This document shows positions 1 through 13,255 of a stretch of 13,255 bases of DNA, piece by piece. The translations under genes and the position numbers were made by a program. Source of the stretch: a virus; the UHGV virus genome UHGV-1728205. The stretch is one strand, 5' to 3'. Under the pieces are notes generated by a model that was not told the DNA's origin, searched no databases, and worked only from the letters and a program-made list of their open reading frames with translations. Numbering within the stretch: the stretch's first letter is position 1; the number at the start of each line of letters is the position of its first letter.

Positions 1-147
1 ACGAGTGGAACCACCTGTATCACGAGTGGAAGCACCTGTATCACGAGTGGAACCACCTGTATCACGAGTGGAAGCACCTGTAGCACGAGTTGAAGCACCT
101 GTAGCACGAGTTGAAGCACCTGTAGCACGATTTGAACCGCCTGTAGT
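1..147 (+). repeat. 21-bp tandem repeat, about 7 copies, in-frame coding (heptapeptide repeats)
   Basis: Units acgagtggaaccacctgtatc / acgagtggaagcacctgtatc / acgagttgaagcacctgtagc repeat head to tail from base 1, with a degenerate last unit near 127-147. The repeat probably continues upstream of the window. Confidence 0.85.
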
Positions 148-271
148 CGATGTCAGCGATTTGAAGGAGAAAATCAGACTGTATGCGTTATCACACAATC
201 CTCATTGCGATGTAGATAATATGCCGGATGATGTTGTTTTGATGATGTATAAAGATATGATGGGTCAATAA
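1..271 (+). CDS. 3' end of a gene entering from upstream of the window; heptapeptide-repeat region plus ~45-aa C-terminal segment, function unknown
   Basis: Frame with codons at 2-4, 5-7... is open from base 2 to TAA at 269-271. The M at position 5 in the ORF track is a GTG inside the open frame, not a real start. Encodes PVSRVEA/PVARVEA repeats then ...DLKEKIRLYALSHNPHCDVDNMPDDVVLMMYKDMMGQ. A hairpin terminator follows directly. Confidence 0.5.
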   Translation, partial: RVEPPVSRVEAPVSRVEPPVSRVEAPVARVEAPVARVEAPVARFEPPVVDVSDLKEKIRLYALSHNPHCDVDNMPDDVVLMMYKDMMGQ

Positions 272-275
272 AGAT

Positions 276-301
276 AGCGGGGTAGTTAGCCCCGCTTTTT
301 G
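276..301. terminator. Rho-independent hairpin terminator between convergent transcription units (likely bidirectional)
   Basis: Stem GCGGGG (277-282) / CCCCGC (290-295) with a 7-nt loop, followed by TTTTT (296-300) on the plus strand. On the minus strand the same hairpin is followed by a weaker T-rich run. It lies between the stop of the plus-strand gene (271) and the stop of the minus-strand gene (302). Confidence 0.7.
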
Positions 302-640
302 TTAACAGAAGGGTTCGTTTTTCCAGTCACCATCCTGTTTAAGTATATAAGGTTGATAATCTGTTTCACCCGTTTCAACATGTTCCAGATTACCCTGACG
401 ATTCGTTTTAAACTTGCCCAATGGTAAATACTGACGCGGGAAAACGTTATGCCATTTACCGTATTCGGTATCTTTTCCATCTTTGTATTTAACGGGACCA
501 CACGCTGAACATAATCGTTTACCTTTCCTTTCAGGTGCATATGACCAGTCGTATAATTTTTCAAAGAAGCCGTTAAACCCCTGAGAAGACAGAGCGGTGT
601 TTTCAACACACCCACAGTTTTCACATTGAAACAAACTCAT
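302..640 (-). CDS. small cysteine-rich (zinc-ribbon-like) protein, 112 aa, function unknown
   Basis: ATG at 640 preceded by GAGGTG Shine-Dalgarno with 5-nt spacing. Two CxxC pairs (CENCGC ... CSACGP). Preferred over the overlapping 286..624 frame because of the SD and Cys motifs. Confidence 0.55.
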   Translation of the reverse strand: MSLFQCENCGCVENTALSSQGFNGFFEKLYDWSYAPERKGKRLCSACGPVKYKDGKDTEYGKWHNVFPRQYLPLGKFKTNRQGNLEHVETGETDYQPYILKQDGDWKNEPFC

Positions 641-690
641 CGGTACACCTCATAGAAAACGTGCGCCACATAGAGCGCACTGATGATTAA

Positions 691-900
691 CTATTTATGA
701 TTAGCCAGGCTTTCGAACTGGCGGTTAGTTGTATCACAATCGTCTGCTATTTTGTCCAGTATCCCGTACGAATGAGAAACCAGCGAATTAAATTCATCAT
801 CACTGGTTACTGGTACAGGGACAAATCTAATCCCGGCATGTGCAAGACTGTTTGCCATTTCAAGACACTTACGTATTTCTACAGGCGATGCTTTATTCAT
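691..900 (-). CDS. hypothetical protein (~69 aa)
   Basis: ATG at 900 lies 2 nt after the TGA of the upstream HD-hydrolase gene; alternative GTG at 906 overlaps that stop. Same strand and packing as neighbours. Ends TAG at 691-693. Confidence 0.45.
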   Translation of the reverse strand: MNKASPVEIRKCLEMANSLAHAGIRFVPVPVTSDDEFNSLVSHSYGILDKIADDCDTTNRQFESLANHK

Positions 901-902
901 AA

Positions 903-1472
903 TCACAGATTCCCCATCGCTTTAACCAGCGCGTCGTAGTGTTTGTCAAACGCGGTTAACTGGACGTTCGTTAGTTTGTATTTGGCTTTAAACAATTCAC
1001 GCTCAACAAGCGCGTATAACTCCTGGTTGCTTGCGTCTGACAGATGAGAAAGCATGAGTTGTTTTTCAGCCAGGTACGTTACAGCAAACTTCGGATCGTG
1101 TCGGACAATTGAAGATGTGTTATCCAGCAGATCACACAGTTTTATAGTTTTCACCACAGGTTCAGCCCGTGATAAATGGTCGATGTCCCGTGCTTTACGC
1201 TTAACACGGTTGCCGTGGTGTGGACGACTCACATCAGTAAGCTGATCAACATAACGTGCGACCGTCTCACCGAACTGCGAGCACACATCACCCACGGTCA
1301 CGCGCGTATCTTCAACGACGTCATGTAGCCAGGCAGCGGTAATCATATCCGGCGTACCACCATAGCGTTTAACCAGTTCAGCAACGTTCCGGCAGTGGTT
1401 CACATATGGGTCGTTGGTGTACTTACGAAGTTGATCACCGTGTGCTGCTGTTGCGAATTGTTCAGGTGTCAT
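903..1472 (-). CDS. RelA/SpoT-family HD-domain phosphohydrolase (small alarmone hydrolase-like, putative (p)ppGpp/(p)ppApp hydrolase)
   Basis: 189 aa. HGDQLRKYTNDPYVNHCRNVA ... AAWLHDVVEDT ... FGETVARYV ... KLCDLLDN closely follows the SpoT/Mesh1 hydrolase pattern (H..R..G.PY..H...VA, AALLHDV.EDT, FG..VA..V, KLADRLHN). ATG at 1472 overlaps the upstream stop (ATGA). Confidence 0.8.
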   Translation of the reverse strand: MTPEQFATAAHGDQLRKYTNDPYVNHCRNVAELVKRYGGTPDMITAAWLHDVVEDTRVTVGDVCSQFGETVARYVDQLTDVSRPHHGNRVKRKARDIDHLSRAEPVVKTIKLCDLLDNTSSIVRHDPKFAVTYLAEKQLMLSHLSDASNQELYALVERELFKAKYKLTNVQLTAFDKHYDALVKAMGNL

Positions 1473-1714
1473 GATGGTTGTACCTCTGTTTGTTTTTCTG
1501 CCTTCAACACCATGCGAGAACCATCATCCAGTTCCCACGCGATCTCACCACCTTCAGCAATAACCAGTTACCATACTAACTGTGCTGCTTCATTGGTTAC
1601 ATCACGACCGGGATCATTGCCAACGCGCATACGCCCACCTTCAACATCGCGCATTTTTGCCAGCATGATAGTTTTTGATAGTGGTGAAAAACCAAGTTGA
1701 AGTTTAGTACTCAT
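1469..1714 (-). pseudogene. 81-codon reading frame interrupted by an in-frame TAA (ochre) at 1568-1570; possible pseudogene, sequencing error, or two very short ORFs
   Basis: Minus-strand ATG at 1714-1712 lies 2 nt after the stop of the upstream gene. The frame reads MSTKLQLGFSPLSKTIMLAKMRDVEGGRMRVGNDPGRDVTNEAAQLVW-stop-LVIAEGGEIAWELDDGSRMVLKAEKQTEVQPS and ends at a TGA that overlaps the ATG of the HD-hydrolase gene (ATGA). Both ends look like genuine coupled gene junctions. Confidence 0.3.
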
Positions 1715-1716
1715 AT

Positions 1717-1977
1717 TCAATACCCTTTTAATTTTCTACACTCAGGACAGCGCCATCTACCTTTTTGGTAAACTCGCGTATGACCACGTTTACATTTATT
1801 GGTTACCAGTGATATACCGAGACGTGACGCTTTAATGTGCACCGCTTCAACGTCCCGGCGAAGGTAATACGCTATTTCATCCGCACTGATCTTTCCTGCA
1901 TTAATTTTTAATAACGCCAGATCTCGTGCGGACCACTTCAAACCGTTACGAGGGAACCTGTTAGTTACATTCGACAT
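1717..1977 (-). CDS. putative DNA-binding protein (helix-turn-helix-like segment plus C-terminal Cys/His zinc-ribbon-like motif), 86 aa
   Basis: First ATG at 1977; the ORF-track start at 1980 is TTG. ...ISADEIAYYLRRDVEAVHIKASRLGIS... resembles a sigma70 region-4 style HTH. C-terminus CKRGH...CPEC. Stop TGA at 1717-1719. Confidence 0.5.
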   Translation of the reverse strand: MSNVTNRFPRNGLKWSARDLALLKINAGKISADEIAYYLRRDVEAVHIKASRLGISLVTNKCKRGHTRVYQKGRWRCPECRKLKGY

Positions 1978-2185
1978 CAATCATTAAATCTTCTGGTACT
2001 GTCACCACAACGCGGTCGTTTTCGCAAAATGGTGATAGCGGTTCCTCTTCCGGCTGTAAACGAAGCGTAATCTGTGACCCGTGGTAATTGATATAGCGCA
2101 CCCAATACCAATCGTTAAATACTTCAATCTTGTCACCCGGTTTAATATCACGGACAACGGTTGGATTCATCAGTCGGATAGTCAT
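1961..2185 (-). CDS. hypothetical protein, 74 aa
   Basis: ATG at 2185 overlaps the upstream stop (ATGA at 2182-2185). Same strand, tight packing. Confidence 0.5.
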   Translation of the reverse strand: MTIRLMNPTVVRDIKPGDKIEVFNDWYWVRYINYHGSQITLRLQPEEEPLSPFCENDRVVVTVPEDLMIDVECN

Positions 2186-2343
2186 TTCTTTTTACTCCCG
2201 GTTAGTTTAGCGATCCAACGATTTTCATTAACGCTGGGAAAACTGTTATTGAATTTACACTGACGTTCTTCTTCTTTTGTCAACGGTTTAAATTTAGAAC
2301 GACAGGTCAACGTAAAGTAAATTGATGTTAAGTTATCTGACAT
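2182..2343 (-). CDS. hypothetical protein, ~53 aa
   Basis: ATG at 2343 preceded by AAGGAG Shine-Dalgarno. The longer track ORF starting at 2418 begins with GTG and would overlap the upstream gene extensively. Confidence 0.4.
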   Translation of the reverse strand: MSDNLTSIYFTLTCRSKFKPLTKEEERQCKFNNSFPSVNENRWIAKLTGSKKK

Positions 2344-2536
2344 AAATTCTGTCTCCTTTAGGGTGCCGGTGGTTTTTCCAGCGGTTTTGCGCCGCGCTGG
2401 GCTTTTTGCAAAAACCACAATCCATCATCCCGTAATATTTCATCAACCCCATTCGTCGGTTGCTGAGTCTCACCCACTGCCAGACGCCGGGAGCGTTTCT
2501 ACGAACTAACAGAATCTTTGCCTTGCGGTTTTTCAT
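2333..2536 (-). CDS. hypothetical basic protein, 67 aa
   Basis: ATG at 2536 overlaps the TGA of the ParB-like gene (ATGA). Lys/Arg-rich. Confidence 0.45.
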   Translation of the reverse strand: MKNRKAKILLVRRNAPGVWQWVRLSNRRMGLMKYYGMMDCGFCKKPSAAQNRWKNHRHPKGDRIYVR

Positions 2537-3300
2537 AACTGGTGCTCCTTCAGTGCTTTTAACGCTTCGAACTGTTCAGCGGTAAGTTCAACCAGTACTT
2601 TACCACCTTCCGAACGGGTTACAGACCATTCACCACGGATTGCTTCCACTGCAGACCGTACCAGTTTAGCAGGTGGACGACGCGTTACTACTGGTTCTTT
2701 ATCACCTGCTTTAAACTGGCGAATGGCTGCTGATGCGCTGATTTCACCGTTCTGAATACGACGTTTAAGTTCCAGCGGCATATCAAGAATATTCAGTTGT
2801 TCGTAAACGTGTTGGACGGTTTTACCGACCTGTGTAGCGATCTGCTCAACACTCATACCATATGAACGGAAACGACCGTAAATAACAGCACGTTCAACGG
2901 GTGACCACGGTTTACCCTCATTACCTTTTAACAGTGTCAGGGTCTGTTGTAGTTCGTCACCGGACGATTCAACAACGTCTACTGTCAGAATCGGCGTCCC
3001 GGCCTCAATAGCTGCCAATACGCCACGTAAACGATGCTCACCATCCTGAACATAAGGAACACCATCAACAACCTGTACCACGATCGGTGGAACGAAATCG
3101 CCGTTGGTATAAGCCTGACGAAAGTTTTCAATGTGTGCCAGTGCTGCTTCAGTTTCCCAGTAGTTGTCGGTAAATACACCGCGTGGGTTATGTCCTGGAC
3201 GAATCTTGATAATACGCGGATCAATGCGATATGCGTTACCACGTTTTACGTTGGTTTTATCGGTATCAGATAGCTTGCGAAGGGAGTTAATGTTAGCCAT
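2533..3300 (-). CDS. ParB/Srx-like N-terminal domain protein with HTH (ParB-like nuclease/CTPase fold)
   Basis: 255 aa. PPIVVQVVDGVPYVQDGEHRLRGVLAA matches the ParB box (GxxRxxA-type GERRxRA motif). A helix-turn-helix-like segment (MSVEQIATQVGKTVQHVYEQLNIL) follows. ATG at 3300, with a promoter-like motif just upstream. Confidence 0.7.
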   Translation of the reverse strand: MANINSLRKLSDTDKTNVKRGNAYRIDPRIIKIRPGHNPRGVFTDNYWETEAALAHIENFRQAYTNGDFVPPIVVQVVDGVPYVQDGEHRLRGVLAAIEAGTPILTVDVVESSGDELQQTLTLLKGNEGKPWSPVERAVIYGRFRSYGMSVEQIATQVGKTVQHVYEQLNILDMPLELKRRIQNGEISASAAIRQFKAGDKEPVVTRRPPAKLVRSAVEAIRGEWSVTRSEGGKVLVELTAEQFEALKALKEHQL

Positions 3301-3334
3301 TTGTGTTTAGCCTCATGTGTGTTAACTGAGGCTA

Positions 3335-3379
3335 ATTATCGGGGGAGGTTGGTAATCTGTCAAGAATTATTTTAAGGGT
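3335..3379 (-). promoter_or_regulatory. sigma70-type promoter with AT-rich UP-like element (copy A of a conserved motif), driving the ParB-like gene and downstream genes
   Basis: Minus strand reads TAAAATAATTCTTGACA GATTAC...: -35 TTGACA (3363-3358), 17-bp spacer, -10 GATAAT (3340-3335). Overlaps the stop codon of the SLOG gene. Confidence 0.5.
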
Positions 3380-3767
3380 ACGGCACCCACACAGTTAAAC
3401 CAGCTTTCAACATGCGACGGTGCATATCAGCCGTACCACGCCCACCTGGGAACACAACACCGTATGTAGGTCGTGGTTCACCCTCTAACATTGCCTGATT
3501 GCGTTGATGACCTGCAACAGCGTTATAAGCCCCGTGCTTACCCTGTTTTACAACCGCACCCGGCACTGTCAGATCGTTCCACGCTGCCGGACAACTACGA
3601 ACTGGAATACCGTGTAATTGCGCCCACTGCTTACACAAGTTATCAACACCTGATGCACCGCCTTCAATTAGTTCGGTAACCGGGTGTTGTTTGTGAAGTA
3701 ACCCTAATGCTGAAAATATCGCTGTTCTGTCGTTGAAGTCACGACCACCTGTAACGACTATTATCAT
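3372..3767 (-). CDS. SLOG-superfamily protein (LOG/DprA/YpsA-like Rossmann domain, DUF2493-like), putative nucleotide-binding or nucleotide-processing
   Basis: 131 aa. N-terminal IIVVTGGRDF, then LIEGGASGVD, then C-terminal VVFPGGRGTADM resembling the LOG-family PGGxGTxxE signature. ATG at 3767 overlaps the TGA of the methyltransferase-like gene (ATGA). Confidence 0.5.
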   Translation of the reverse strand: MIIVVTGGRDFNDRTAIFSALGLLHKQHPVTELIEGGASGVDNLCKQWAQLHGIPVRSCPAAWNDLTVPGAVVKQGKHGAYNAVAGHQRNQAMLEGEPRPTYGVVFPGGRGTADMHRRMLKAGLTVWVPYP

Positions 3768-4444
3768 TGTTTATTAGCCTCAAATACAGCACGAGCAAAA
3801 CCACGCGGGGTTAATGAACGTAACTGTTTAGTTGTTTCAGACTTACCACCCAGATATTTCCAACCCCAGAAGAAACCAATATTAATCGGTCCGGGACGTT
3901 TTTCAGGCATTCTGAAACCGTTACCGAACCACAGACATGTTTTCTTCGTGTATCCGTCAAACATCGGCATTTTAGGGTGAAAAGGTTTATCATCTGTTGT
4001 CATATAACCGCCATATTCCCACGGATGAAAATAAGCGTCAGGTGTCCCCATCATTTCAGACCGTGATAAAGCACCGACAGGGTTTTCGACCATCCAGGGT
4101 ACGTTATAACGTTCTCCGAGTTCACGGATCAGTTTTGCGTTTGCCAGTGCATACTGTAGTTCAGCGTCATCCCGGTCATGTTGCGAACCGCTTTGAGCAA
4201 ACAGGGTGCAATCCGGAAAACCAAAAATAATTGACGGTAAAGGTGTTCCCAGTATTTCCTGCTTAATTGCAAATTGTGGGTCAATCCACTGATTAACGTA
4301 ATGAAGATTTGGGTGTTGCATTTTGATTTTATATTCCCCGTGATTACCGGAATCAGCATTAAAGCAATAAACCTGATAGCCAGCCTTAGCCCACGGTAAA
4401 CCCATAATCCCGGAACCATCGAATAACGACCAGACGACTTTCAT
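3764..4444 (-). CDS. compact C5-cytosine methyltransferase-like protein (226 aa; catalytic motifs present, no obvious target-recognition domain)
   Basis: SLFDGSG (motif I, FxGxG AdoMet-binding like), FGFPDCTLFAQSG (aligns with motif IV GGPPCQxFSxAG including the catalytic Cys), MVENPVG (motif VI ENV). ATG at 4444 overlaps the upstream stop (ATGA). Confidence 0.5.
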   Translation of the reverse strand: MKVVWSLFDGSGIMGLPWAKAGYQVYCFNADSGNHGEYKIKMQHPNLHYVNQWIDPQFAIKQEILGTPLPSIIFGFPDCTLFAQSGSQHDRDDAELQYALANAKLIRELGERYNVPWMVENPVGALSRSEMMGTPDAYFHPWEYGGYMTTDDKPFHPKMPMFDGYTKKTCLWFGNGFRMPEKRPGPINIGFFWGWKYLGGKSETTKQLRSLTPRGFARAVFEANKQ

Positions 4445-4656
4445 CCTTCTGTTTCCTCTACGATCCGCGTGATTTTAACAGGCGCAATTGTTACTTTTCT
4501 GCAATTGAAACCCTGATCGCGAAGTGCTTTAAGTGCAACACCAGCCATGTAAGTTGAACTGAACAGAGTAGCTTCACTGATATCAACCCAGGTAATCCGG
4601 GTATCAATATGTGCATAACGGTCTTCTTTTTTGATCACAGCACCGAATTCAGTCAT
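4441..4656 (-). CDS. hypothetical protein, 71 aa
   Basis: ATG at 4656 overlaps the end of the upstream membrane-protein gene by 8 nt; stop TGA overlaps the start of the methyltransferase-like gene. Confidence 0.5.
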   Translation of the reverse strand: MTEFGAVIKKEDRYAHIDTRITWVDISEATLFSSTYMAGVALKALRDQGFNCRKVTIAPVKITRIVEETEG

Positions 4657-4846
4657 GATCGTTTTTCACTCCCCACATGCAAGCGCCAATTGATGCCGCA
4701 GCCGCTAATAATCCAAGACCAGCCAGAAACCACCACGGAGTTTCCGCATGATTACCACGGGTCATTAGTCCGACAATGCAAGACGCTAGTGTTACGGACA
4801 CAAGGAACACGATAACAGTGATTAAACGGTCAAATATGTTTTTCAT
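4649..4846 (-). CDS. small membrane protein (two predicted transmembrane helices), 65 aa
   Basis: Hydrophobic stretches LITVIVFLVSVTLASCIVGLM and WWFLAGLGLLAAAASIGACMW. ATG at 4846 overlaps the upstream stop (ATGA). Confidence 0.55.
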   Translation of the reverse strand: MKNIFDRLITVIVFLVSVTLASCIVGLMTRGNHAETPWWFLAGLGLLAAAASIGACMWGVKNDHD

Positions 4847-5076
4847 GGTTTTTTGTACCCCGTGTTAAACTTTTCTATTGCTTCTTCTTTAGTTGCTGAA
4901 ATACAAATACCAATGCCGTTATCTAATAAGAAAGACCAGTAGTTTTCACCGTACTTTTTAATCATTTCTGGATGTAAAGATTTTCTTTTGATAAGTGTTG
5001 GATTGTGTGACTCAACAAAAGAATATAAGTCTTCGCCTTGTAAGTTTTCAAAGTCTGTTAATTTAGATGGTTTCAT
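4843..5076 (-). CDS. hypothetical protein, ~77 aa (start uncertain)
   Basis: ATG at 5076 chosen because the track start at 5214 is TTG and would overlap the upstream zinc-ribbon gene by ~150 nt. An internal ATG at 5172 is an alternative. Confidence 0.4.
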   Translation of the reverse strand: MKPSKLTDFENLQGEDLYSFVESHNPTLIKRKSLHPEMIKKYGENYWSFLLDNGIGICISATKEEAIEKFNTGYKKP

Positions 5077-5302
5077 GGTTTTTCTTCCAGTTCCATTCGC
5101 GACGTGCAGCCGCTGATGTTGTTTGATAAGTGTGACCGCAGTTTTTACAATGACAGGTGTACACGTTTCCATTTTCACCAGTAACTTCAACGTTTTCCCA
5201 GTTGCGTGTACCAAACCCTAATAAATAATCACGTAGGTTTCGCTCATAACACTTACTGCAGCGTAATGAACGAGTTCGACGACATGATCCACGACCACCC
5301 AT
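5063..5302 (-). CDS. small zinc-ribbon-like protein, 79 aa
   Basis: ATG at 5302 preceded by AAGGTG Shine-Dalgarno, 2 nt after the stop of the upstream gene. Cys clusters C-x8-C-x2-C and CHCKNC. Confidence 0.55.
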   Translation of the reverse strand: MGGRGSCRRTRSLRCSKCYERNLRDYLLGFGTRNWENVEVTGENGNVYTCHCKNCGHTYQTTSAAARREWNWKKNHETI

Positions 5303-5304
5303 TA

Positions 5305-5517
5305 TTAGTTCACCTTAGCCCATACAAGTTTATGAATAGATGTTCTGTATTTTCGCGCGGTAATATTAAAATCATGACCCTCGTGATAAATACTTTCGTG
5401 TTTCTTGAAGCTGTTAGCAATTAACGTGAAAGGTAATAGTTGCTTCAGACGATAAAAATAAAACCGTGTTCCATTAGGACACTGTGAAAGTCTCATTAAT
5501 CGGTAGCGTGGTTTCAT
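5305..5517 (-). CDS. hypothetical protein, ~70 aa
   Basis: ATG at 5517 preceded by a strong AAGGAG Shine-Dalgarno (5531-5526, 8-nt spacer). The track start at 5562 lies upstream of the predicted transcription start of the adjacent promoter, so the shorter form is preferred. Confidence 0.5.
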   Translation of the reverse strand: MKPRYRLMRLSQCPNGTRFYFYRLKQLLPFTLIANSFKKHESIYHEGHDFNITARKYRTSIHKLVWAKVN

Positions 5518-5548
5518 AACAATCACTCCTTGTTCACTTGATGTACAG

Positions 5549-5594
5549 ACTATAGCGCACATATCTGTAATTCGTCAAGAATTATTTTACACAT
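5549..5594 (-). promoter_or_regulatory. sigma70-type promoter with AT-rich UP-like element (copy B of the conserved motif)
   Basis: Minus strand reads GTGTAAAATAATTCTTGACG AATTAC...: -35 TTGACG (5578-5573), 18-bp spacer, -10 TATAGT (5554-5549). Lies between the primase-helicase stop (5608) and the next gene. Confidence 0.5.
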
Positions 5595-5607
5595 CCTTGT
5601 GCAATGA

Positions 5608-7962
5608 CTAACCGTTACTCGCAGGTGGGAAAGGCACTACATTAGCTGTTGATTGAAAATGGAGAAGACGAATACCCCTGAAACCGTTTAATCGTACGTT
5701 ATTTATATTAACAACGTCTTTTTTCACTTTACCACGAAGGGTGGATTTAAACGCCCGACTAAATGCAGTTTTAGTCATTGCTGGACCACCTTCCTGTGTT
5801 TTCCAAAGACGATAACGACCATAGAGTTCTTCAGTATGTACCTCACCATCAGATACCAATTCGCAACAATCTCTGATAAAACTTCTAAGTGGTGATTGTT
5901 GATCCATAATTTCCTGACGTTCTTCCAGACTTGCTTTTGGTTCAGTAAACCGTCCGTTTGCACGTAACCGTTGTAAACCTTCAATCGCCCAGTTACAGAT
6001 CCCCGGTAGTTCTTTCATCAGTCGTGCTTCCAGAGTGGTATCTTCACGACCCAGGAACGAAATGTTGAATGGCAGGATCAGCAAACGGTTAGCCATTGCA
6101 CCTGAATCATCAGCAAATGCCGGTATGTTGTTAGCAGCCAGTGTCATACGTCCCGGTAAACGACCGTTCCATGCACCTTTATACTTACGATTAACCGGAA
6201 TCGCATCACAACCTGTAATAGATTTGAAACGGTCCAGAATTCGGTTGCGATCAGGCCCGGACACACTGTGAGCATCACCAATAAACAGCACAGATTTATC
6301 CAGCACAGTTTCAAGTACCGCATCACTGGCTAAACCCTCTAGTGTGATCCCTGCATACGCTTCATCACCTACCAGTGCCTGAATGATGCGACCAATCGTA
6401 CCTTTACCGGAACGTGGTGCACCAATCAACAGCATCGCTTTCTGATAGTCATACGAGTTGACAAGCATGTAACCCAGCCATTCCTGCAACAATGCAATAC
6501 GTTCCTGATCACCTTCCAGAGTTGTATTAAGGAACTGTTCAAATGCTGGCGCACGGGCAAACGGATCGTAGCTATACGGTAAAATACTGGTCGTAAAGAA
6601 GTCTGGGTTATGTGCATCACATTTACCCGTATGTACATCCAGTATCCCGTTCTGACAAACAATATAGTGTGATACATCAACGCCGGGCCATGTTCCAAGC
6701 TCACGATCAGCGCGTGTGAATAAATACGACAATACCTTGTACGTACCATTGATCACGTCAGCTTTTGGTTCGCTGGCAAGCATTGCAATAGAAATTTGAT
6801 GTTTCAGTTCATCTTCACTGACACGTTCCCATACACGGCCGTTAAACCGGTACGGCTGTTGCTGGACGAAAATCAATGTGTTGTTCGGATAATAGTTATT
6901 AACGAACGTGGATGCGTTAACCGTATGGTTTGAACCATATGCACCTTCACCGGGTCTCACACTCATGTACGCAGGTGTTCCACCATTAGGAACGACGGTA
7001 GGCGCTGGTGTGACTGCTTTCATCAGTTCTGGTGTCATTGTCGGTTGACTACGATACACAGTATCACAACGTTCCACAGCGCCCAGAATCGTGTTTTCAC
7101 GGTAATCCTGACGATCTGTCCATTTACCACGAACCAGCCCGGAACGGTTAAACAATCGTTCAATACGTTCGCAATCTTTCCCGGTCCAGAACGCAAGGTG
7201 TGAACACAGGGCAGCATCTGCTGCTGATGCGTTGTAGTCTTTCCCCTGGTCACTAGGATATGACACAGACAGGCGTTCAACGTTTGCATTCCACAGATCC
7301 GCAAATGACGCTTTATTGCCAAATACTGAAGCAGCACTGGACGAATTTAACGCCATTTTAATCAGTTCATCGTCGTCTGTCGGTCCTGACCAGTCATCAC
7401 AAGGTGCTGTTGTCCAGCGTGCGGAACGGTCTGAACGGATACGACCATACCGGGCAATAGAATCATGAATACCCTGGGTATAATCAATATCAACATCACC
7501 ATTACCCGTGAGCGTCATCGCGACGAAACGATCACGCCAGTACATTTCCAGCCCGGTTTTCTGGTCGTTCAGACTGTTAAAACCTTCCGGTATGCTGGTA
7601 TAAGCACAGATGATATGCAAACCTGTTCCTGACTGACTGACTTCGGTGTACGCGTTTGGAAAACGGTTTACGAATTCATGCGCCAGTGGTGACCACGTAG
7701 CTGTTGCCTGATCTACCAGACAGTTATCAACATCGATAAAGAAATAAGGGTCATTTTCTGTGAATACAAAACCAACACCAGACATACCGTACATTTGCGC
7801 CATGCCTAACGCGGTGTGATAGTCAGACCAGTCGTTAGGGTTAGTGGTACTGGCTTTATAACCGTGTACCGGACTGTATGGTACTTTCGTTGGTTTTGGA
7901 CGATCGGCGACTGTCTCAAGCCGCCACATGACCCACTGTTTACGGTTCAGTAACCCTTTCAT
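5608..7962 (-). CDS. bifunctional primase-polymerase (archaeo-eukaryotic primase fold, prim-pol type) fused to an SF3 (D5/P4-type) helicase
   Basis: 784 aa. N-terminal QWVMWRLE...KVPYS, DxD motif FFIDVDNC and SGTGLHIICAY (AEP motifs I and II). C-terminal P-loop LLIGAPRSGKGT (Walker A) typical of phage/plasmid primase-helicase C-terminal domains. ATG at 7962, stop TAG at 5608-5610. Confidence 0.85.
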   Translation of the reverse strand: MKGLLNRKQWVMWRLETVADRPKPTKVPYSPVHGYKASTTNPNDWSDYHTALGMAQMYGMSGVGFVFTENDPYFFIDVDNCLVDQATATWSPLAHEFVNRFPNAYTEVSQSGTGLHIICAYTSIPEGFNSLNDQKTGLEMYWRDRFVAMTLTGNGDVDIDYTQGIHDSIARYGRIRSDRSARWTTAPCDDWSGPTDDDELIKMALNSSSAASVFGNKASFADLWNANVERLSVSYPSDQGKDYNASAADAALCSHLAFWTGKDCERIERLFNRSGLVRGKWTDRQDYRENTILGAVERCDTVYRSQPTMTPELMKAVTPAPTVVPNGGTPAYMSVRPGEGAYGSNHTVNASTFVNNYYPNNTLIFVQQQPYRFNGRVWERVSEDELKHQISIAMLASEPKADVINGTYKVLSYLFTRADRELGTWPGVDVSHYIVCQNGILDVHTGKCDAHNPDFFTTSILPYSYDPFARAPAFEQFLNTTLEGDQERIALLQEWLGYMLVNSYDYQKAMLLIGAPRSGKGTIGRIIQALVGDEAYAGITLEGLASDAVLETVLDKSVLFIGDAHSVSGPDRNRILDRFKSITGCDAIPVNRKYKGAWNGRLPGRMTLAANNIPAFADDSGAMANRLLILPFNISFLGREDTTLEARLMKELPGICNWAIEGLQRLRANGRFTEPKASLEERQEIMDQQSPLRSFIRDCCELVSDGEVHTEELYGRYRLWKTQEGGPAMTKTAFSRAFKSTLRGKVKKDVVNINNVRLNGFRGIRLLHFQSTANVVPFPPASNG

Positions 7963-7965
7963 AAT

Positions 7966-8241
7966 TTACGCTCCGAACTGACGTTCAGCAGCCATCAGTT
8001 TGACCAGGTTGATAGCAGATCGCCCGGTAAGCAGATTACGTTTAACATGAATTTCAGTAACGTTCAGACGTTTGGCAACAGCTTCAATACCGTGGTTATC
8101 AATCAGTTTTTGCAGACGTGATACGCGCTGGTTTGTTTTTTTAACGTCATCAAATTCAGAAACAATTTCAGACGTTATTGATTCACGTTTTTGTTTGTAT
8201 TCAGGACTTACAATTGTTGCGATTAAAGATTTTTTATTCAT
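7966..8241 (-). CDS. small putative HTH DNA-binding protein, 91 aa
   Basis: ATG at 8241 overlaps the TGA of the VRR-NUC gene (ATGA). C-terminal segment GIEAVAKRLNVTEIHVKRNLLTGRSAINLV resembles a helix-turn-helix. Confidence 0.5.
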   Translation of the reverse strand: MNKKSLIATIVSPEYKQKRESITSEIVSEFDDVKKTNQRVSRLQKLIDNHGIEAVAKRLNVTEIHVKRNLLTGRSAINLVKLMAAERQFGA

Positions 8242-8729
8242 TGTTTAATCCATTTTTCAAATTGTGAAGGATGAGTGATGAAACGAAATTCACCACCTGC
8301 GTTTTCAACAATCGCACCGAAAGTGGCTTGTGCTTGTGCACGTCTGTCACTCGGGGTCATATGCCAGTCAGGACGTTTCATTTCGGCAGCAATAAAGACG
8401 CCTACTTTAGAACCGACCATATCCGGTGTAACGATTTTGGTTTTAATGCCGATATAGTCGCTTGACTTCATAACAGCGTTAATTTTCGCACTGGTATTGC
8501 CAAGACCATAACGAACCATCATTCCTTTTTCGTTTTTTAAAGCACCTGAGTTATTACGCCAGATACGTTGCCCGGCGCGTGCTGCAATCAGTTCACATTC
8601 TTTACTGGTGGCGCTTTCACTTACACCGTCTTCGTGTGGTGTTCCGTCAGGCTGATAAAGAGCGTATAACTCGTACAACGCCATCTGACTAACACCGTGA
8701 CGAATCGCCCATTGTTCAAGCGTTGTCAT
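8238..8729 (-). CDS. VRR-NUC domain nuclease (PD-(D/E)XK superfamily)
   Basis: 163 aa. RIWRNNSGA..., SSDYIGIK and FIAAEMKRP give the D ... ExK arrangement typical of VRR-NUC. ATG at 8729 preceded by AAGGAA Shine-Dalgarno. Confidence 0.7.
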   Translation of the reverse strand: MTTLEQWAIRHGVSQMALYELYALYQPDGTPHEDGVSESATSKECELIAARAGQRIWRNNSGALKNEKGMMVRYGLGNTSAKINAVMKSSDYIGIKTKIVTPDMVGSKVGVFIAAEMKRPDWHMTPSDRRAQAQATFGAIVENAGGEFRFITHPSQFEKWIKQ

Positions 8730-8770
8730 TACAGTTCCTTACGTTTAAAATATTTCTATGCAGATTACCA

Positions 8771-10432
8771 TCAGATTAATGAACTTGCAACCCTTGCGGC
8801 GAGTTTATTAGCTTCACGAGTACGTAACCCCTGAGCGCTAAGTACATCAACACCAAACACCCTGTAAAACATCTTGTAAGCGTCATCAACGGGTATACCT
8901 TTATCACGCTGAATACCGGCCCATGTGGTAATCATGCTACGTAATTTACGTTGTGCATCGTTCATTGCCTGAATGTTTTTCATTGCACTGTAAGCTGCAA
9001 CAGGGGGTGCACCAGCGTTTAACATTTGTTCTTTTACCGCAACAGGGTCACGGTCGATTATCACAACTGCCCTGCGTAATTCTTCCAGTTCTTCAGGTGT
9101 CAGTTCACGTAAATTACCTTCTACACGATCCGGGCCTGAGCGTTCGGCTTTTTCAGGAACATGACCACAATACGGGCAGCACGGCAGACCAGACGGATAA
9201 GGCTTCAGACACGGTGGAATACCGTTATCAGGATCACCCTTGTTTGTACACGTTGTGTTACTGTTCCCACTGCTGTTTGATGAACGACGGTCACGGTCAT
9301 CTAAAGACCAGTTGTAGTGCTGATCGGGAAGTGGAAAACCACGGGCCAGAAATCGACGAACATTACCGACTTTATCAATAATCAGTGCTTTTTTACCGGG
9401 TTTGAAACGCAACGGTCGGCCCATTTGTTGTACAAACAAAGAGTAAGATTCTGTTGGACGGTCCATTACAGCACATTCCATCGCCGGGCAATCGTACCCT
9501 TCACCGAATAAATCGTTGTTACATAGCACGAGTGTTTTACGTCGTTCAAAACGTTCCAGAATATCCGCTCGTTCCTGATTGCTGTTTCGTGAGCTGATCG
9601 CCTCTGCAGGAATGCCAGCATCGCGAAATTCTTTTGCCAGTGCTTCAGCAGAATCTACGTCACACGTAAAAACAACAGTGAGTAAGCCATCTGCATATGT
9701 TTTCCACGTACTGACGGTATCACCAACGATGTTTGAATCTTCCATCGCTTTTTTTAACGCAGAGGGTTTGTAATCACCCGTAGTATGGGAAATCATTTCT
9801 ACAGTTAATTCCAGGTCTGTTTCAGCCATAATCAGGCGATAATCAGCCAGGTGTTGTTGACTGATTAACTCACGCATTGACGGACCAATGATCATCTGAT
9901 CTGCATAACCTGACGCATGACGACCCAAGCCTTTACCGTCAGCACGGATCGGTGTAGCTGTAACACCCAGACCTTTAGCGTTAGGGAATTTTTCCCGGCA
10001 ATCTCCCCACTGTGTGCCACGTACCAGGTGATGCGCTTCGTCGCTGAATACAAGAGACACGTCGTTGTACCATCGTTCGTACTGTTTTGTTCTTAACGTT
10101 TGTGAACTGGTAATAACGATGTCAGCGCCGGGGGAATAGGTACTGTAACCAAGCGTTTTCATCTGCTGATTAGTTGCAAACTTAACAGTATCTTTTTGCG
10201 CTATAAATCTGTGTGGTAATCCCTGGCGAGCAACAGCCATTGCGATTTGACTAACCAGTTCTTTACGGTGTGCCTGGATGACTTTTACACCGTCTCTTGT
10301 TTTTACCAGTTCAGACATACAGAACGTTTTTCCTGCCCCCGTGGGAAGCACAAGAATCACGTCGTCAGCACCGCTTGACCATGCCTGACATACGTTATTG
10401 ATAGCTTCAGTCTGATAATAACGAGCTTTCAT
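8771..10432 (-). CDS. SF2 DEAD/DEAH-box helicase with C-terminal cysteine cluster
   Basis: 553 aa. Walker A VLPTGAGKTF, DEAH box VFSDEAHHL, motif III GVTATP, motif VI QQMGRPLR. C-terminal region contains CLKPYPSGLPCCPYCGH. ATG at 10432, stop TGA at 8771-8773. Confidence 0.85.
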   Translation of the reverse strand: MKARYYQTEAINNVCQAWSSGADDVILVLPTGAGKTFCMSELVKTRDGVKVIQAHRKELVSQIAMAVARQGLPHRFIAQKDTVKFATNQQMKTLGYSTYSPGADIVITSSQTLRTKQYERWYNDVSLVFSDEAHHLVRGTQWGDCREKFPNAKGLGVTATPIRADGKGLGRHASGYADQMIIGPSMRELISQQHLADYRLIMAETDLELTVEMISHTTGDYKPSALKKAMEDSNIVGDTVSTWKTYADGLLTVVFTCDVDSAEALAKEFRDAGIPAEAISSRNSNQERADILERFERRKTLVLCNNDLFGEGYDCPAMECAVMDRPTESYSLFVQQMGRPLRFKPGKKALIIDKVGNVRRFLARGFPLPDQHYNWSLDDRDRRSSNSSGNSNTTCTNKGDPDNGIPPCLKPYPSGLPCCPYCGHVPEKAERSGPDRVEGNLRELTPEELEELRRAVVIIDRDPVAVKEQMLNAGAPPVAAYSAMKNIQAMNDAQRKLRSMITTWAGIQRDKGIPVDDAYKMFYRVFGVDVLSAQGLRTREANKLAARVASSLI

Positions 10433-10462
10433 TTTCTACCCTGTAATATCGAATCGTGAAAA

Positions 10463-10508
10463 AAGTTTAAAATAGTTCTTGACGCATTGCAACTTATTCC
10501 TCTAACAT
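10463..10508 (+). promoter_or_regulatory. sigma70-type promoter, upstream copy (D) of the conserved motif
   Basis: TTTAAAATAGTTCTTGACG CATTGC: -35 TTGACG (10479-10484), ~18-bp spacer, -10 TAACAT (10503-10508). A more divergent copy of the motif. Confidence 0.4.
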
Positions 10509-10525
10509 CTGCATCAACGAAAGGT

Positions 10526-10570
10526 GAGTGTAAAATAATTCTTGACAGATTACACAACACCTTTTAAAGT
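10526..10570 (+). promoter_or_regulatory. sigma70-type promoter with AT-rich UP-like element (copy C), driving the plus-strand operon
   Basis: GTGTAAAATAATTCTTGACA GATTAC: -35 TTGACA (10542-10547), 17-bp spacer, -10 TAAAGT (10565-10570). About 30 nt upstream of the AAGAGGA Shine-Dalgarno and ATG at 10603. Confidence 0.55.
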
Positions 10571-10602
10571 TAGCGACAACCAAACAACAAGAGGAAAACG
10601 TA

Positions 10603-11364
10603 ATGTTCGAAGTTAAATTACTTGTAACTGCTCCGGGTCTGGAAACTGCGATCAACAATCTGGCAAACGCTATTGCGACTGGTGCTGCACCACTCATGAC
10701 TGCTCAGGGTGATGGTATCACTAAAGAAACCGTGACTGTCGTTGCTGAATCATTGCCTGTTGTATCTGCACCAACTGAAGATGTTGACGATAATGAAACC
10801 AGCACTGAAGAGTTCGACAAATGGGGTTTGCGTCATGATCCGCGTATCCACACTGACAGTAAATCCCTGAACAAAGGTGATGGTCTGTGGCGTCAAAAGA
10901 AAAAACTGGATGAAGCGTTTGTTGACGGTGTTAAACGTGAACTTATCGCTGAAGCAGTTGAAGCAGGGCGTTATACCGGACCTGCAGAACTTGCACCGGG
11001 TTATGTAGCACCTGTTGATCCTGCTCCAGCGGTTCCTGCCGCTCCGGTAGCTCCAGTTGTACCAGCAGCACCGGCTGCACCAGTCGAGCAACCTGTAACC
11101 ACGGATCCGGCTAAAGTTTATAACACCCAGGTTCTTCAGTCAGCACTAATGCAGATGTTTGGACAAATTACGGGCGACCGTGCCGCGCCATTAAGTCAGC
11201 GAATCATGGGACTGTATGAAACTCAGAATGTAATGCAGATTGATGACCCGGTGAAACTGAAATCTATCATCGAACTGATTGAACGTATTAACGCTGCCCC
11301 TGCTGATGCTGAAAATATTGTCGGTCAGGCTGAGTCTGTTAAACAAATGGGTGGGGCATTCTGA
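10603..11364 (+). CDS. hypothetical protein with central Pro/Ala-rich low-complexity linker, 253 aa
   Basis: ATG at 10603 with AAGAGGA Shine-Dalgarno. First gene after the promoter region. Linker APGYVAPVDPAPAVPAAPVAPVVPAAPAAPV encoded around 10975-11095. Stop TGA overlaps the next ATG (TGATG). Confidence 0.6.
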   Translation: MFEVKLLVTAPGLETAINNLANAIATGAAPLMTAQGDGITKETVTVVAESLPVVSAPTEDVDDNETSTEEFDKWGLRHDPRIHTDSKSLNKGDGLWRQKKKLDEAFVDGVKRELIAEAVEAGRYTGPAELAPGYVAPVDPAPAVPAAPVAPVVPAAPAAPVEQPVTTDPAKVYNTQVLQSALMQMFGQITGDRAAPLSQRIMGLYETQNVMQIDDPVKLKSIIELIERINAAPADAENIVGQAESVKQMGGAF

Positions 11365-12509
11365 TGACCAGTCACGCTACCTTTAGTGCCAGTGGATCAA
11401 AACGTTGGTTAGCTTGTCCGGGTAGCGTTCAACTGTCACAGCGGATTGATTATGTAGAACCATCATCACCCAGTGCTGAAGAAGGTACAGCCGGGCACTG
11501 GGTGTTAGAACAGAAGATTAAAGGTAAACCGCCATTAATGCCGTGTCTTGCTCCTAACGGTGTTCAGGTTACTGAAGACATGCACATTTACGCGGATGAC
11601 TTTATAGCAGATGTTCTTTCAGTTGGTGCGAAACTTGATCCGCTGTTTTCAGAAGTTCGCATTCACATTGACTGGTTGTTACCCGGTCAGTACGGAACCT
11701 GTGATTATCGCTGGTATGATTTTAATACTGATACGCTTTATGTATGGGATTATAAATATGGTCATGTTGCAGTTGACGCAGTTGATAACTCACAGGGGGT
11801 CTATTATGCACTGGACCAACGTTGCATCGACACCGTTAAGCGCGTTGTGTTCACAATTGTTCAGCCACGGGCTTATCACCCACTCGGACCTGTAAGACGA
11901 TGGGAGTTTAACCGGACAACATTGATGGAATGGGCTGAACGATTTAAACACGGGTTTAACGAAGCACATAAACCAGACGCGCCGTTAAATGTTGGTAGTC
12001 ATTGTCATTACTGTCCGGCGCGTGGTATGTGTCCGGCGATGTATGAGAGGATTTTAGAATTGGCTACTGTTCTTGATGCACCACCATCACTTACGCCAGA
12101 AGAAGTAGCGCGTCGTCTGGCACTTCTTGAAGAACTGTATACGCGTTCTTCTGAAGCAAAAACAGCGTTACATACTCAGGGGTTACATTTTGTTCGCATG
12201 GGTAAGGCTTTACCGGGTTTTAAACTTGCAACAAAGCAAACCCGACGTCAGCTTACGGACGAAGGAAAACTGATCGGTGCTGCACCCATGTTTGGTGTAA
12301 ACCCTGAAACATTGTACGAACGTAAATTAAAACCGTTGTCAACACTGGAAAAATCACTACCTCCGGCACTTGTTGACATGTGTACGACAAAACCAGAAGG
12401 TCAGCCAGTTTTAGTACCTGACAGTGACCCACGTAAAGGTCACAGCACACTGGCAGAATCTGTTTTTAATAAACCCGTGACGATGCCGACTGGCGCACGT
12501 CCACTTTAA
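11364..12509 (+). CDS. DUF2800-family PD-(D/E)XK nuclease (Cas4/RecB-like, with Cys cluster)
   Basis: 381 aa. N-terminus MTSHATFSASGSKRWLACPGS is the characteristic DUF2800 start. Core CDYRWYDF...VWDYKYGH gives the D...(D/E)xK motif. C-terminal CHYCPARGMCPA supplies three Cys which, with the N-terminal Cys, would form a Cas4-like 4-Cys cluster. Confidence 0.75.
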   Translation: MTSHATFSASGSKRWLACPGSVQLSQRIDYVEPSSPSAEEGTAGHWVLEQKIKGKPPLMPCLAPNGVQVTEDMHIYADDFIADVLSVGAKLDPLFSEVRIHIDWLLPGQYGTCDYRWYDFNTDTLYVWDYKYGHVAVDAVDNSQGVYYALDQRCIDTVKRVVFTIVQPRAYHPLGPVRRWEFNRTTLMEWAERFKHGFNEAHKPDAPLNVGSHCHYCPARGMCPAMYERILELATVLDAPPSLTPEEVARRLALLEELYTRSSEAKTALHTQGLHFVRMGKALPGFKLATKQTRRQLTDEGKLIGAAPMFGVNPETLYERKLKPLSTLEKSLPPALVDMCTTKPEGQPVLVPDSDPRKGHSTLAESVFNKPVTMPTGARPL

Positions 12510-12524
12510 AAGAAGGTTAATAAC

Positions 12525-13255
12525 ATGGCACAGAAAGAATCTTTTGTAACTCCGGTTGGTCGTCTGGTTGGCGGTTCTTTTTTCGATATCAACACTCATG
12601 ACCACGAAAATAAACCGTTAGCACCTGAAAAACACAACTGGTGGGTTGGTCTGGCGTTTCCTAAAACAGCGGCGAACTGGTGGGAAGAACAAGGTGAACT
12701 GGGTGCGGTATTCCAGGCGATTATGCGAGCGGCTAACTCACACTATGTGAACGGCGAACCACAACAACCTACTTTCGCATGGAAAATTATTAACGGTGAT
12801 GATCCGAAACATGCGAGTAAAACGGGTTATGCTGGTCACTGGGTAATTGGTTTCTCACGCAACGTGGCTATTGACGCGTGTCCGGTTTATAACGCAGCGT
12901 ACCAGCCAGTTATTGATAAAAATCTGGCGAAAAAAGGGTATTACTACCGTATCAGCGGATCATCTGTTGCAAACGGTCGTACAGGTAATCAGGCTGGCGT
13001 ATATATCAACATGGAAATGGCGCAATTGCTTTATGCGGGTGAAGAAATTATTTCTGGTCCGGCTCCTGCCTCTGTGTTCGGTGCTGCTCCTGCAATGCCT
13101 GAAGGTGCACGTCCGATCGGCGTAACACCAGCGGTAGCACCTGTAGCAGCGCCTATACCAGCGGCAGCACCTGTAGCAGCGCCTACACCAGCGGCAGCAC
13201 CTGTAGCAGCGCCTACACCAGCGGCAGCACCTGTAGCAGCGCCTACACCAGCGGC
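12525..13255 (+). CDS. DUF2815-like putative phage ssDNA-binding protein, 3' end truncated by the window; C-terminal Pro/Ala-rich tandem-repeat tail
   Basis: ATG at 12525 with AAGAAGG Shine-Dalgarno. My own translation is open to the window end: MAQKESFVTPVGRLVGGSFFDINTHDHENKPLAPEKHNWWVGLAFPK...GVYINMEMAQLLYAGEEIISGPAPASVFGAAPAMPEGARPIGVTPAVAPVAAPIPAAAPVAAPTPAAAPVAAPTPA... Sits directly downstream of DUF2800, as in the DUF2800-DUF2815 replication module. Family assignment is from memory of that arrangement and N-terminal pattern, not from a search. Confidence 0.5.
   Translation, partial: MAQKESFVTPVGRLVGGSFFDINTHDHENKPLAPEKHNWWVGLAFPKTAANWWEEQGELGAVFQAIMRAANSHYVNGEPQQPTFAWKIINGDDPKHASKTGYAGHWVIGFSRNVAIDACPVYNAAYQPVIDKNLAKKGYYYRISGSSVANGRTGNQAGVYINMEMAQLLYAGEEIISGPAPASVFGAAPAMPEGARPIGVTPAVAPVAAPIPAAAPVAAPTPAAAPVAAPTPAAAPVAAPTPA
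13131..13255 (+). repeat. 30-bp tandem repeat, at least 4 copies, in-frame coding (AAPVAAPTPA decapeptide repeats), running off the window
   Basis: Unit gcggcagcacctgtagcagcgcctacacca at 13161-13190, 13191-13220 and 13221-13250 (three identical copies), one variant copy at 13131-13160, and a partial copy to 13255. Confidence 0.9.

Follow-up and report, generated by a model that had tools for sequence, protein, structure and literature searches.

The 13,255-nucleotide stretch of viral DNA examined here (UHGV virus genome UHGV-1728205; the whole stretch is referred to as the window) raises the question of whether it is a closed element or a piece of a larger phage genome. The sequence-only reading had proposed a single repeat-tailed gene on a closed replicon of about 13.2 kb, and the observations behind that proposal were reproduced. 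Tandem Repeats Finder (TRF) placed both window ends inside in-frame tandem arrays, of 21-bp units on the left and 30-bp units on the right (Table 1). With base 1 (a), the leftover bases gc at the right end form a GCA codon, and the frame across the join is open as far as the stop at position 271. The longest word common to the two arrays is the 13-mer AGCACCTGTAGCA, which occurs at positions 73, 94, and 115 and at 13136, 13166, 13196, and 13226 and nowhere else in the window. The hairpin noted after the left open reading frame (ORF) was likewise detected as terminator-like. The interpretation that we favor is a different one, with a probability of roughly 0.93: the window is a contig-sized fragment, comprising the early/replication module, of a 9NA/Sasha-type siphophage, and its ends lie in two different in-frame variable-number tandem repeats (VNTRs) of two unrelated genes. 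[quoted passage not shown]

This interpretation was tested directly on two contigs found via an exact match to the exonuclease protein of the window. The ENA contig k141_54516 (40,333 bp) is 100% identical to window positions 1364 to 13214 (11,851 bp, no mismatch) and extends past the right window end. After three 30-bp units, it continues into the usual SSB tail (...VKVMTEKAGG...NFLNGNGY) and a stop codon, which completes a 277-amino-acid (aa) protein; the C-terminal 47 or so codons of the SSB gene and its stop codon are thus outside the window. Downstream of the SSB gene are an 84-aa ORF, a 618-aa ORF located where Sasha and PJ16 have their DNA polymerase gene, and genes for NinX, a methyltransferase, an endolysin, and a tailspike. 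The DUF2815-like gene therefore stops shortly past the window in a different context, and the proposed continuation of this gene through the junction into the left ORF was not borne out. The other end of k141_54516 corresponds to window position 12, inside the 21-bp array, where the unit order is slightly different and five mismatches occur, all of them in the array. The second contig, Logan SRR2565813_12598 (13,086 bp), is also 100% identical to the window; it ends at window position 13186 and, if colinear, starts at about position 101.

The relatives of the window show the same arrangement. In a megablast search against phage records, the best matches were Escherichia phages (PJ16, PDP46, Bas82, and AVIO78A) and Salmonella phages (Sasha, Sergei, and Solent) of the 9NA/Sasha type, siphophages of 53 to 58 kb that are colinear across the window at about 95 to 96% identity, and 9NA and Klebsiella relatives matched at about 80%. 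Gene order and orientation are kept over the whole window in Sasha (vB_SenS_Sasha, NC_047786; Sashavirus), Escherichia phage vB_EcoS_PJ16, and phage 9NA (Nonanavirus), and the identities refer to the shared parts; several small genes are replaced mosaically in the window, and each genome covers only 47 to 69% of it. Together with the continuation into DNA polymerase and virion genes on the identical 40.3-kb contig and in the relatives, this places the window in the Nonanavirus/Sashavirus group. In Sasha, PJ16, and 9NA alike, the SSB gene is separate from the gp81/gp84-like gene, and the ribosome-binding sites of both are annotated in Sasha. Sasha gp63, which matches the window end, is a 303-aa protein annotated as [quoted passage not shown]; past its array come VKVMTEKAGGATYEQFIAQGWNDEQLIANGYMVMTTPAPNFLNGNGY, a stop codon, a terminator, and then the DNA polymerase gene. 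The window start matches the 3' part of the gene for Sasha gp81, a hypothetical protein of 321 aa; about 560 bp upstream of the array, this gene has a ribosome-binding site and a start codon of its own. Packaging of 9NA has been reported to be of the pac-site headful type (PMC4153490), and phage Sergei is presumed to be circularly permuted (PMC8273493).

Against this background, we consider it very improbable that the window is a closed plasmid-like, satellite-like, or phage-plasmid-like replicon of about 13.2 kb, in which the SSB gene would cross the junction and end with the VVDVSDLKEK...MMGQ tail at position 271. In its favor, both the in-frame join and the 13-mer common to the arrays were confirmed, the genes of the window include replication genes and one for a ParB-like protein but none for structural proteins, and the Logan contig has nearly the same extent as the window. 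However, on the identical 40.3-kb contig, the SSB gene ends normally and is followed by polymerase and virion genes, and all complete relatives have two genes. The gp81 tail was present in none of the 20 SSB homologues whose sequences were inspected, an alignment of 60 also shows tails of the SSB family type, and in every full-length member of the gp81 family this tail is attached to its own N-terminal part containing a helix-turn-helix (HTH). The longest overlap between a suffix and a prefix of the window was 0. A circle would lack the DNA polymerase gene, which in relatives sits just downstream of the SSB gene. The only PLSDB matches were to two small ORFs amounting to 1 to 2% of the window, and complete Escherichia coli genomes gave no match for positions 5608 to 9000.

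The junction itself was searched for as the 21-mer CACCAGCGGCACGAGTGGAAC. No match was found in IMG/VR, and the 2 and 6 matches found in JGI metagenomes and GTDB genomes were all in unrelated contigs. These are GC-rich (52 to 70%) Acidobacteriota or Myxococcota contigs (among the GTDB matches) or metagenome contigs, and because they show no blastn similarity to the window, the matches are due to chance. The same searches bear on a second possibility, that subgenomic circles exist beside the full phage: recombination between the arrays via 11 to 13 bp of microhomology, perhaps helped by the phage gp2.5-type annealing protein and exonuclease, would excise the 13-kb module, and part of the population would carry it as a defective mini-replicon. 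The arrays are in direct orientation and share the microhomology, and the phage encodes a predicted gp2.5-like annealing protein and a PD-(D/E)XK exonuclease. However, a related junction sequence was present in none of the searched collections (IMG/VR, JGI metagenomes, and GTDB genomes), the product would have no DNA polymerase, and contigs ending in the arrays are fully explained by assembly. We give this scenario hardly any credence. A bolder proposal, that the window is an excised 13-kb circle bearing an in-frame SSB-gp81 fusion in a fraction of infected cells, with a milder version in which the HTH protein obtained its heptapeptide linker as a copy of the SSB one, is granted only a very slight chance.

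In the fragment interpretation, both contig ends fall in arrays, and other assemblies also break there. Four IMG/VR contigs whose sizes approach that of a complete genome (58.0, 59.7, 60.7, and 61.0 kb) end 79 to 141 nucleotides into the SSB array, and the partial GenBank record of phage FSL SP-062 (13,598 bp) begins in the SSB linker. Positions 1 to 98 of IMGVR_UViG_3300014770_000037 (8,312 bp) contain two SSB 30-bp units followed by the reverse complement of the segment coding for the SSB tail (IAQGWNDEQLIA); judged by its sequence, this contig is an inverted chimeric assembly at the array. Either array is often left unresolved by short-read assemblers, and contigs therefore stop there. The in-frame join of end and start, an event with a prior of 1 in 3, is in this interpretation a coincidence of the position at which the contig stopped.

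Some points weigh against this interpretation. Breaks within arrays are expected in a circle too, and therefore such breaks alone do not decide the topology. The architecture of this molecule past both ends is inferred from an identical contig of another sample and from relatives, and among the contigs found, none identical to the window crosses the 21-bp array. The flexible tether, partner binding, and HTH DNA binding suggested below for the two proteins rest on fold prediction and analogy. The topology is decided not by the array breaks but by the identical 40-kb contig and the relatives. Altogether, these results caution that contigs bounded by coding tandem repeats can look circular, even in frame, though they are mere assembly fragments; here, a circular reading would have yielded a false "mini-replicon" and a false fusion protein.

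Both arrays behave as coding VNTRs: the copy numbers of near-identical genomes differ in steps of whole units that preserve the reading frame. The earlier suggestion that the copy number is variable or misassembled was confirmed by these differences, by the chimeric contig, and by the SSB array, which has at least 4.4 units in the window and 3 units in the otherwise identical k141_54516. The 30-bp array encodes (AAPVAAPTPA)n in frame with the ATG at 12525. Among relatives, the SSB linker, measured from core to tail, is 93 to 231 bp long and built of 30-bp units. The linker of 9NA consists of seven perfect copies of a different 30-bp unit, and one distant relative has an 18-residue unit. A hybrid linker was found in IMGVR_UViG_3300030464_000003 (positions 4104 to 4325), where four units of the 9NA type come after three 30-bp units of the Sasha type; its sequence suggests recombination between lineages inside the array.

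The predicted structure of the SSB protein was examined with an AlphaFold2 (AF2) model. The repeat region (about residues 200 to 250) was modeled without secondary structure, with a predicted local distance difference test (pLDDT) score of 49 to 60. Residues 251 to 285 were modeled as a small beta-alpha-alpha-beta module (pLDDT, 90 to 94), and the last residues were disordered. Across the SSB clade, the tails are composed of P/A-rich linkers of highly variable length and short conserved modules (of the G-W-T-D-E-x-L-I type and the PAPxFLxGxGY type), which are sometimes swapped in order or duplicated, for example in homologues P0031 and P0052. The protein was assigned to the T7-type OB-fold variant, and its PF10991 score of 26.9 bits is marginally above the gathering cutoff of 26. 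An acidic C-terminal tail was not found; the last 47 residues in complete relatives include 4 acidic and 2 basic residues. By analogy with the disordered linker of E. coli SSB, the repeat may encode a flexible connection that tethers the ssDNA-binding core to a C-terminal module for the binding of partners.

The array at the left end encodes (R-V-E-P/A-P-V-S/A)n in at least 7 units. The gp81-like reading frame runs in codons from base 2, through RVEPPVS/RVEAPVA units, into VVDVSDLKEKIRLYALSHNPHCDVDNMPDDVVLMMYKDMMGQ (VVDVSDLKEK...MMGQ) and the stop codon at 269 to 271. This 3' part corresponds to the linker and the conserved C-terminal 42 residues VVDVSDLKEK...KDMMGQ, and the N-terminal 184 or so codons are outside the window. 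When the 89-aa fragment was used as a query, only three short fragment proteins were retrieved; the family was recovered with a repeat-free query. Full-length homologues (Sasha, PJ16, and contigs of draft assemblies) are 251 to 321 aa long. A model of the family shows an XRE/Cro-type HTH fold, to which the protein was assigned. A Pfam search of Sasha gp81 yielded no family at an E value of ≤0.1, and hence no HTH model, and PHROG 25538 is listed as "unknown function." The gp81-like protein is thus a predicted XRE/Cro-type HTH protein of unknown function.

In Sasha-type genomes, the segment between the core and the tail of the gp81-like gene is 75, 96, 117, 138, 180, 201, or 285 bp long; each length is made up of 3 to 13 21-bp units and a remainder that is constant, and the frame is kept. 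Neither 9NA nor the more divergent gp81-like relatives, which are probably Klebsiella phages, have the array; it is therefore a lineage-specific insertion at one position of the protein, between its helical core and the conserved C-terminal segment. Both arrays would encode flexible spacers, the length of which could be changed by slippage or unequal recombination. The 9NA/Sasha-type phages carry fast-varying, repeat-coded Pro/Ala linkers in the SSB and, in the Sasha lineage, also in a predicted HTH protein. Short-read assemblies of these phages are fragmented or opened at the arrays, which might also find use as strain markers.

As an alternative to the closed replicon, the sequence-only reading had offered two paralogous repeat-linker genes. 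The presence of two repeat-linker genes was upheld; their paralogy is unsupported, because the two proteins are unrelated outside the linkers and the repeat units share only 11 to 13 nucleotides. A paralogous relationship between the C-terminal tails of the SSB and the gp81-like protein was also considered and was rejected, as no similarity was evident by inspection.

The origin of the units is a separate matter. The shared core of 11 to 13 nucleotides may be due to common ancestry of the units or to convergence in codon choice. Almost every gp81 unit contains the 11-mer core CACCTGTAGCA, as do the SSB units of the Sasha type, and the core extends to 13 nucleotides in units beginning GAA GCA. 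Given the A-P-V-A shared by both linkers, identical codons would be expected with a P of ~0.007 under the codon usage of the window. The SSB 18-mer GCGGCAGCACCTGTAGCA matches four 21-bp units with 2 or 3 mismatches, and it agrees with GTGGAAGCACCTGTAGCA at 16 of 18 positions; none of 200 shuffles gave a match with ≤3 mismatches, although shuffling the whole window provides a weak null where coding sequence is of low complexity. The gp81 array is also the inserted one, being absent from 9NA. A third P/A/V-rich stretch in the window, within the 253-aa protein (at about 11000 to 11110; APVDPAPAVPAAPVAPVVPAAPAAPV; TRF period 27, 1.9 copies), uses codons different from those of both arrays and shows no match. 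These observations are compatible with a relationship by descent, in which part of the 30-bp SSB unit was copied ectopically and gave rise to the 21-bp gp81 unit, or the reverse. However, just 11 to 13 contiguous bases are common and the remainder of the units differs, and because both units encode Pro/Val/Ala-rich peptides, the null models used favor homology. The last partial gp81 unit merges into native sequence (GAACCGCCTGTAG|TCGATG), so that a local duplication of native sequence fits equally well, and in the more divergent relatives, probably Klebsiella phages, the SSB unit is of the Sasha type and a gp81 array is lacking. Descent is therefore put forward only tentatively, as the less probable outcome.

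Table 1. Features of the window, with positions in nucleotides of the 13,255-nucleotide stretch
Feature	Position	Strand	Basis or remark
Partial 21-bp in-frame tandem array, gp81-like linker, cut by window edge	1-146	+	TRF period 21, 7.0 copies, 93% matches
gp81-like gene (phrog_25538), 3' part, 89 codons and stop	2-271	+	Full-length homologues
GC-rich hairpin (276-296) and T run	276-301	none	Terminator-like scan; same position annotated as terminator in Sasha
Early/replication gene block	302-10432	-	ORFs and Pfam; syntenic with Sasha, PJ16, and 9NA
Divergent intergenic region	10433-10602	none	Sigma-70-like sites on + strand at 10479-10508 and 10542-10570; consensus matches only
253-aa protein, phrog_27827 (unknown function), first gene of plus operon	10603-11364	+	
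DUF2800/PD-(D/E)XK exonuclease	11364-12509	+	Pfam E = 1.2e-57
gp2.5/DUF2815-type SSB gene, 5' part (243 codons)	12525-13255	+	OB-fold core at about 12525-13121, then linker array
Partial 30-bp in-frame tandem array, SSB linker, cut by window edge	13125-13255	+	TRF period 30, 4.4 copies, 97% matches

The remaining features of the window are listed in Table 1. The hairpin sits between the convergent gp81-like gene and a minus-strand gene for a 112-aa protein. The numbers of promoter-like and terminator-like sites in the window were not above shuffle expectation, and among the terminator-like sites, only this hairpin was taken seriously, because it is annotated in Sasha. The tRNA and Rfam scans of the window were empty. 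The minus-strand block encodes an HD_4 hydrolase, the ParB-like protein, a YAcAr protein, a D5_N/DUF5906 primase-helicase, and a DEAD/ResIII helicase, and it also holds a gene labeled methyltransferase in relatives. The HD_4 domain protein (188 aa; positions 903 to 1472, minus strand; E = 3.9e-15) is labeled polyphosphate or guanosine polyphosphate hydrolase in relatives. Two small minus-strand ORFs, at 1491 to 1703 and 2352 to 2536, encode a DUF7446 protein and a 67-aa protein and show 91 to 96% DNA identity to segments of ~90- to 110-kb E. coli, Shigella, and Salmonella plasmids and of phage CMS-2020a; on the basis of this similarity, they look like the result of mosaic exchange with large, possibly phage-plasmid, replicons. 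In addition, whole-phage-sized contigs (55.9 to 58.5 kb) of the 9NA/Sasha type occur in draft assemblies of bacterial isolates, for example GCA_006099855.1 and GCA_008685865.1, and none were found in PLSDB or among the complete E. coli genomes of RefSeq. These contigs could reflect a carrier state or phage sequenced together with the isolate.

Finally, the window and its two repeat-bearing proteins were compared with known systems. The phage type is known, and both coding VNTRs are already annotated: Sasha shares both genes, and its gp63 and gp81 each carry a "direct tandem repeat region" feature in GenBank. Compared with those of Sasha, PJ16, and 9NA, the arrays of the window are incomplete and have other unit numbers and unit variants, including S-containing units (PVSRVE). 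Compared with XRE/Cro/CI-type HTH regulators such as Aca7, HigA2, and Xfaso 1 Cro, the gp81-like protein has no Pfam HTH family detected from sequence. Its additional parts are a helical domain of about 90 residues, a conserved segment of two helices at the C terminus, and, in Sasha-type phages, the heptapeptide array. The SSB resembles T7 gp2.5 and Enc34 ORF6 (DUF2815, PF10991) in having a nonglobular C-terminal extension after the core, which in T7 gp2.5 is reported to mediate contacts with the polymerase and the primase-helicase (PMC5686142). The tails of the Enc34 and T7 proteins are short and strongly acidic, with 16 of the last 29 residues of Enc34 being acidic (PMC5686142). In contrast, the SSB described here consists of the core, a Pro/Ala tandem-repeat linker of 30 to 80 residues, a predicted beta-alpha-alpha-beta module, and a PAPxFLxGNGY end. 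This nonacidic, modular C terminus departs from the T7/Enc34 paradigm and might merit biochemical study. Low-complexity interdomain linkers are familiar from the intrinsically disordered linker of E. coli SSB, the Ala-Pro linkers of pyruvate dehydrogenase E2, and the Pro-rich spacer of TonB. The phage SSB likewise has a Pro/Ala-rich low-complexity spacer, predicted to be unstructured, between a folded domain and a putative terminal interaction module; unlike in those proteins, the spacer is coded by near-perfect DNA tandem repeats whose copy number differs between near-identical genomes.

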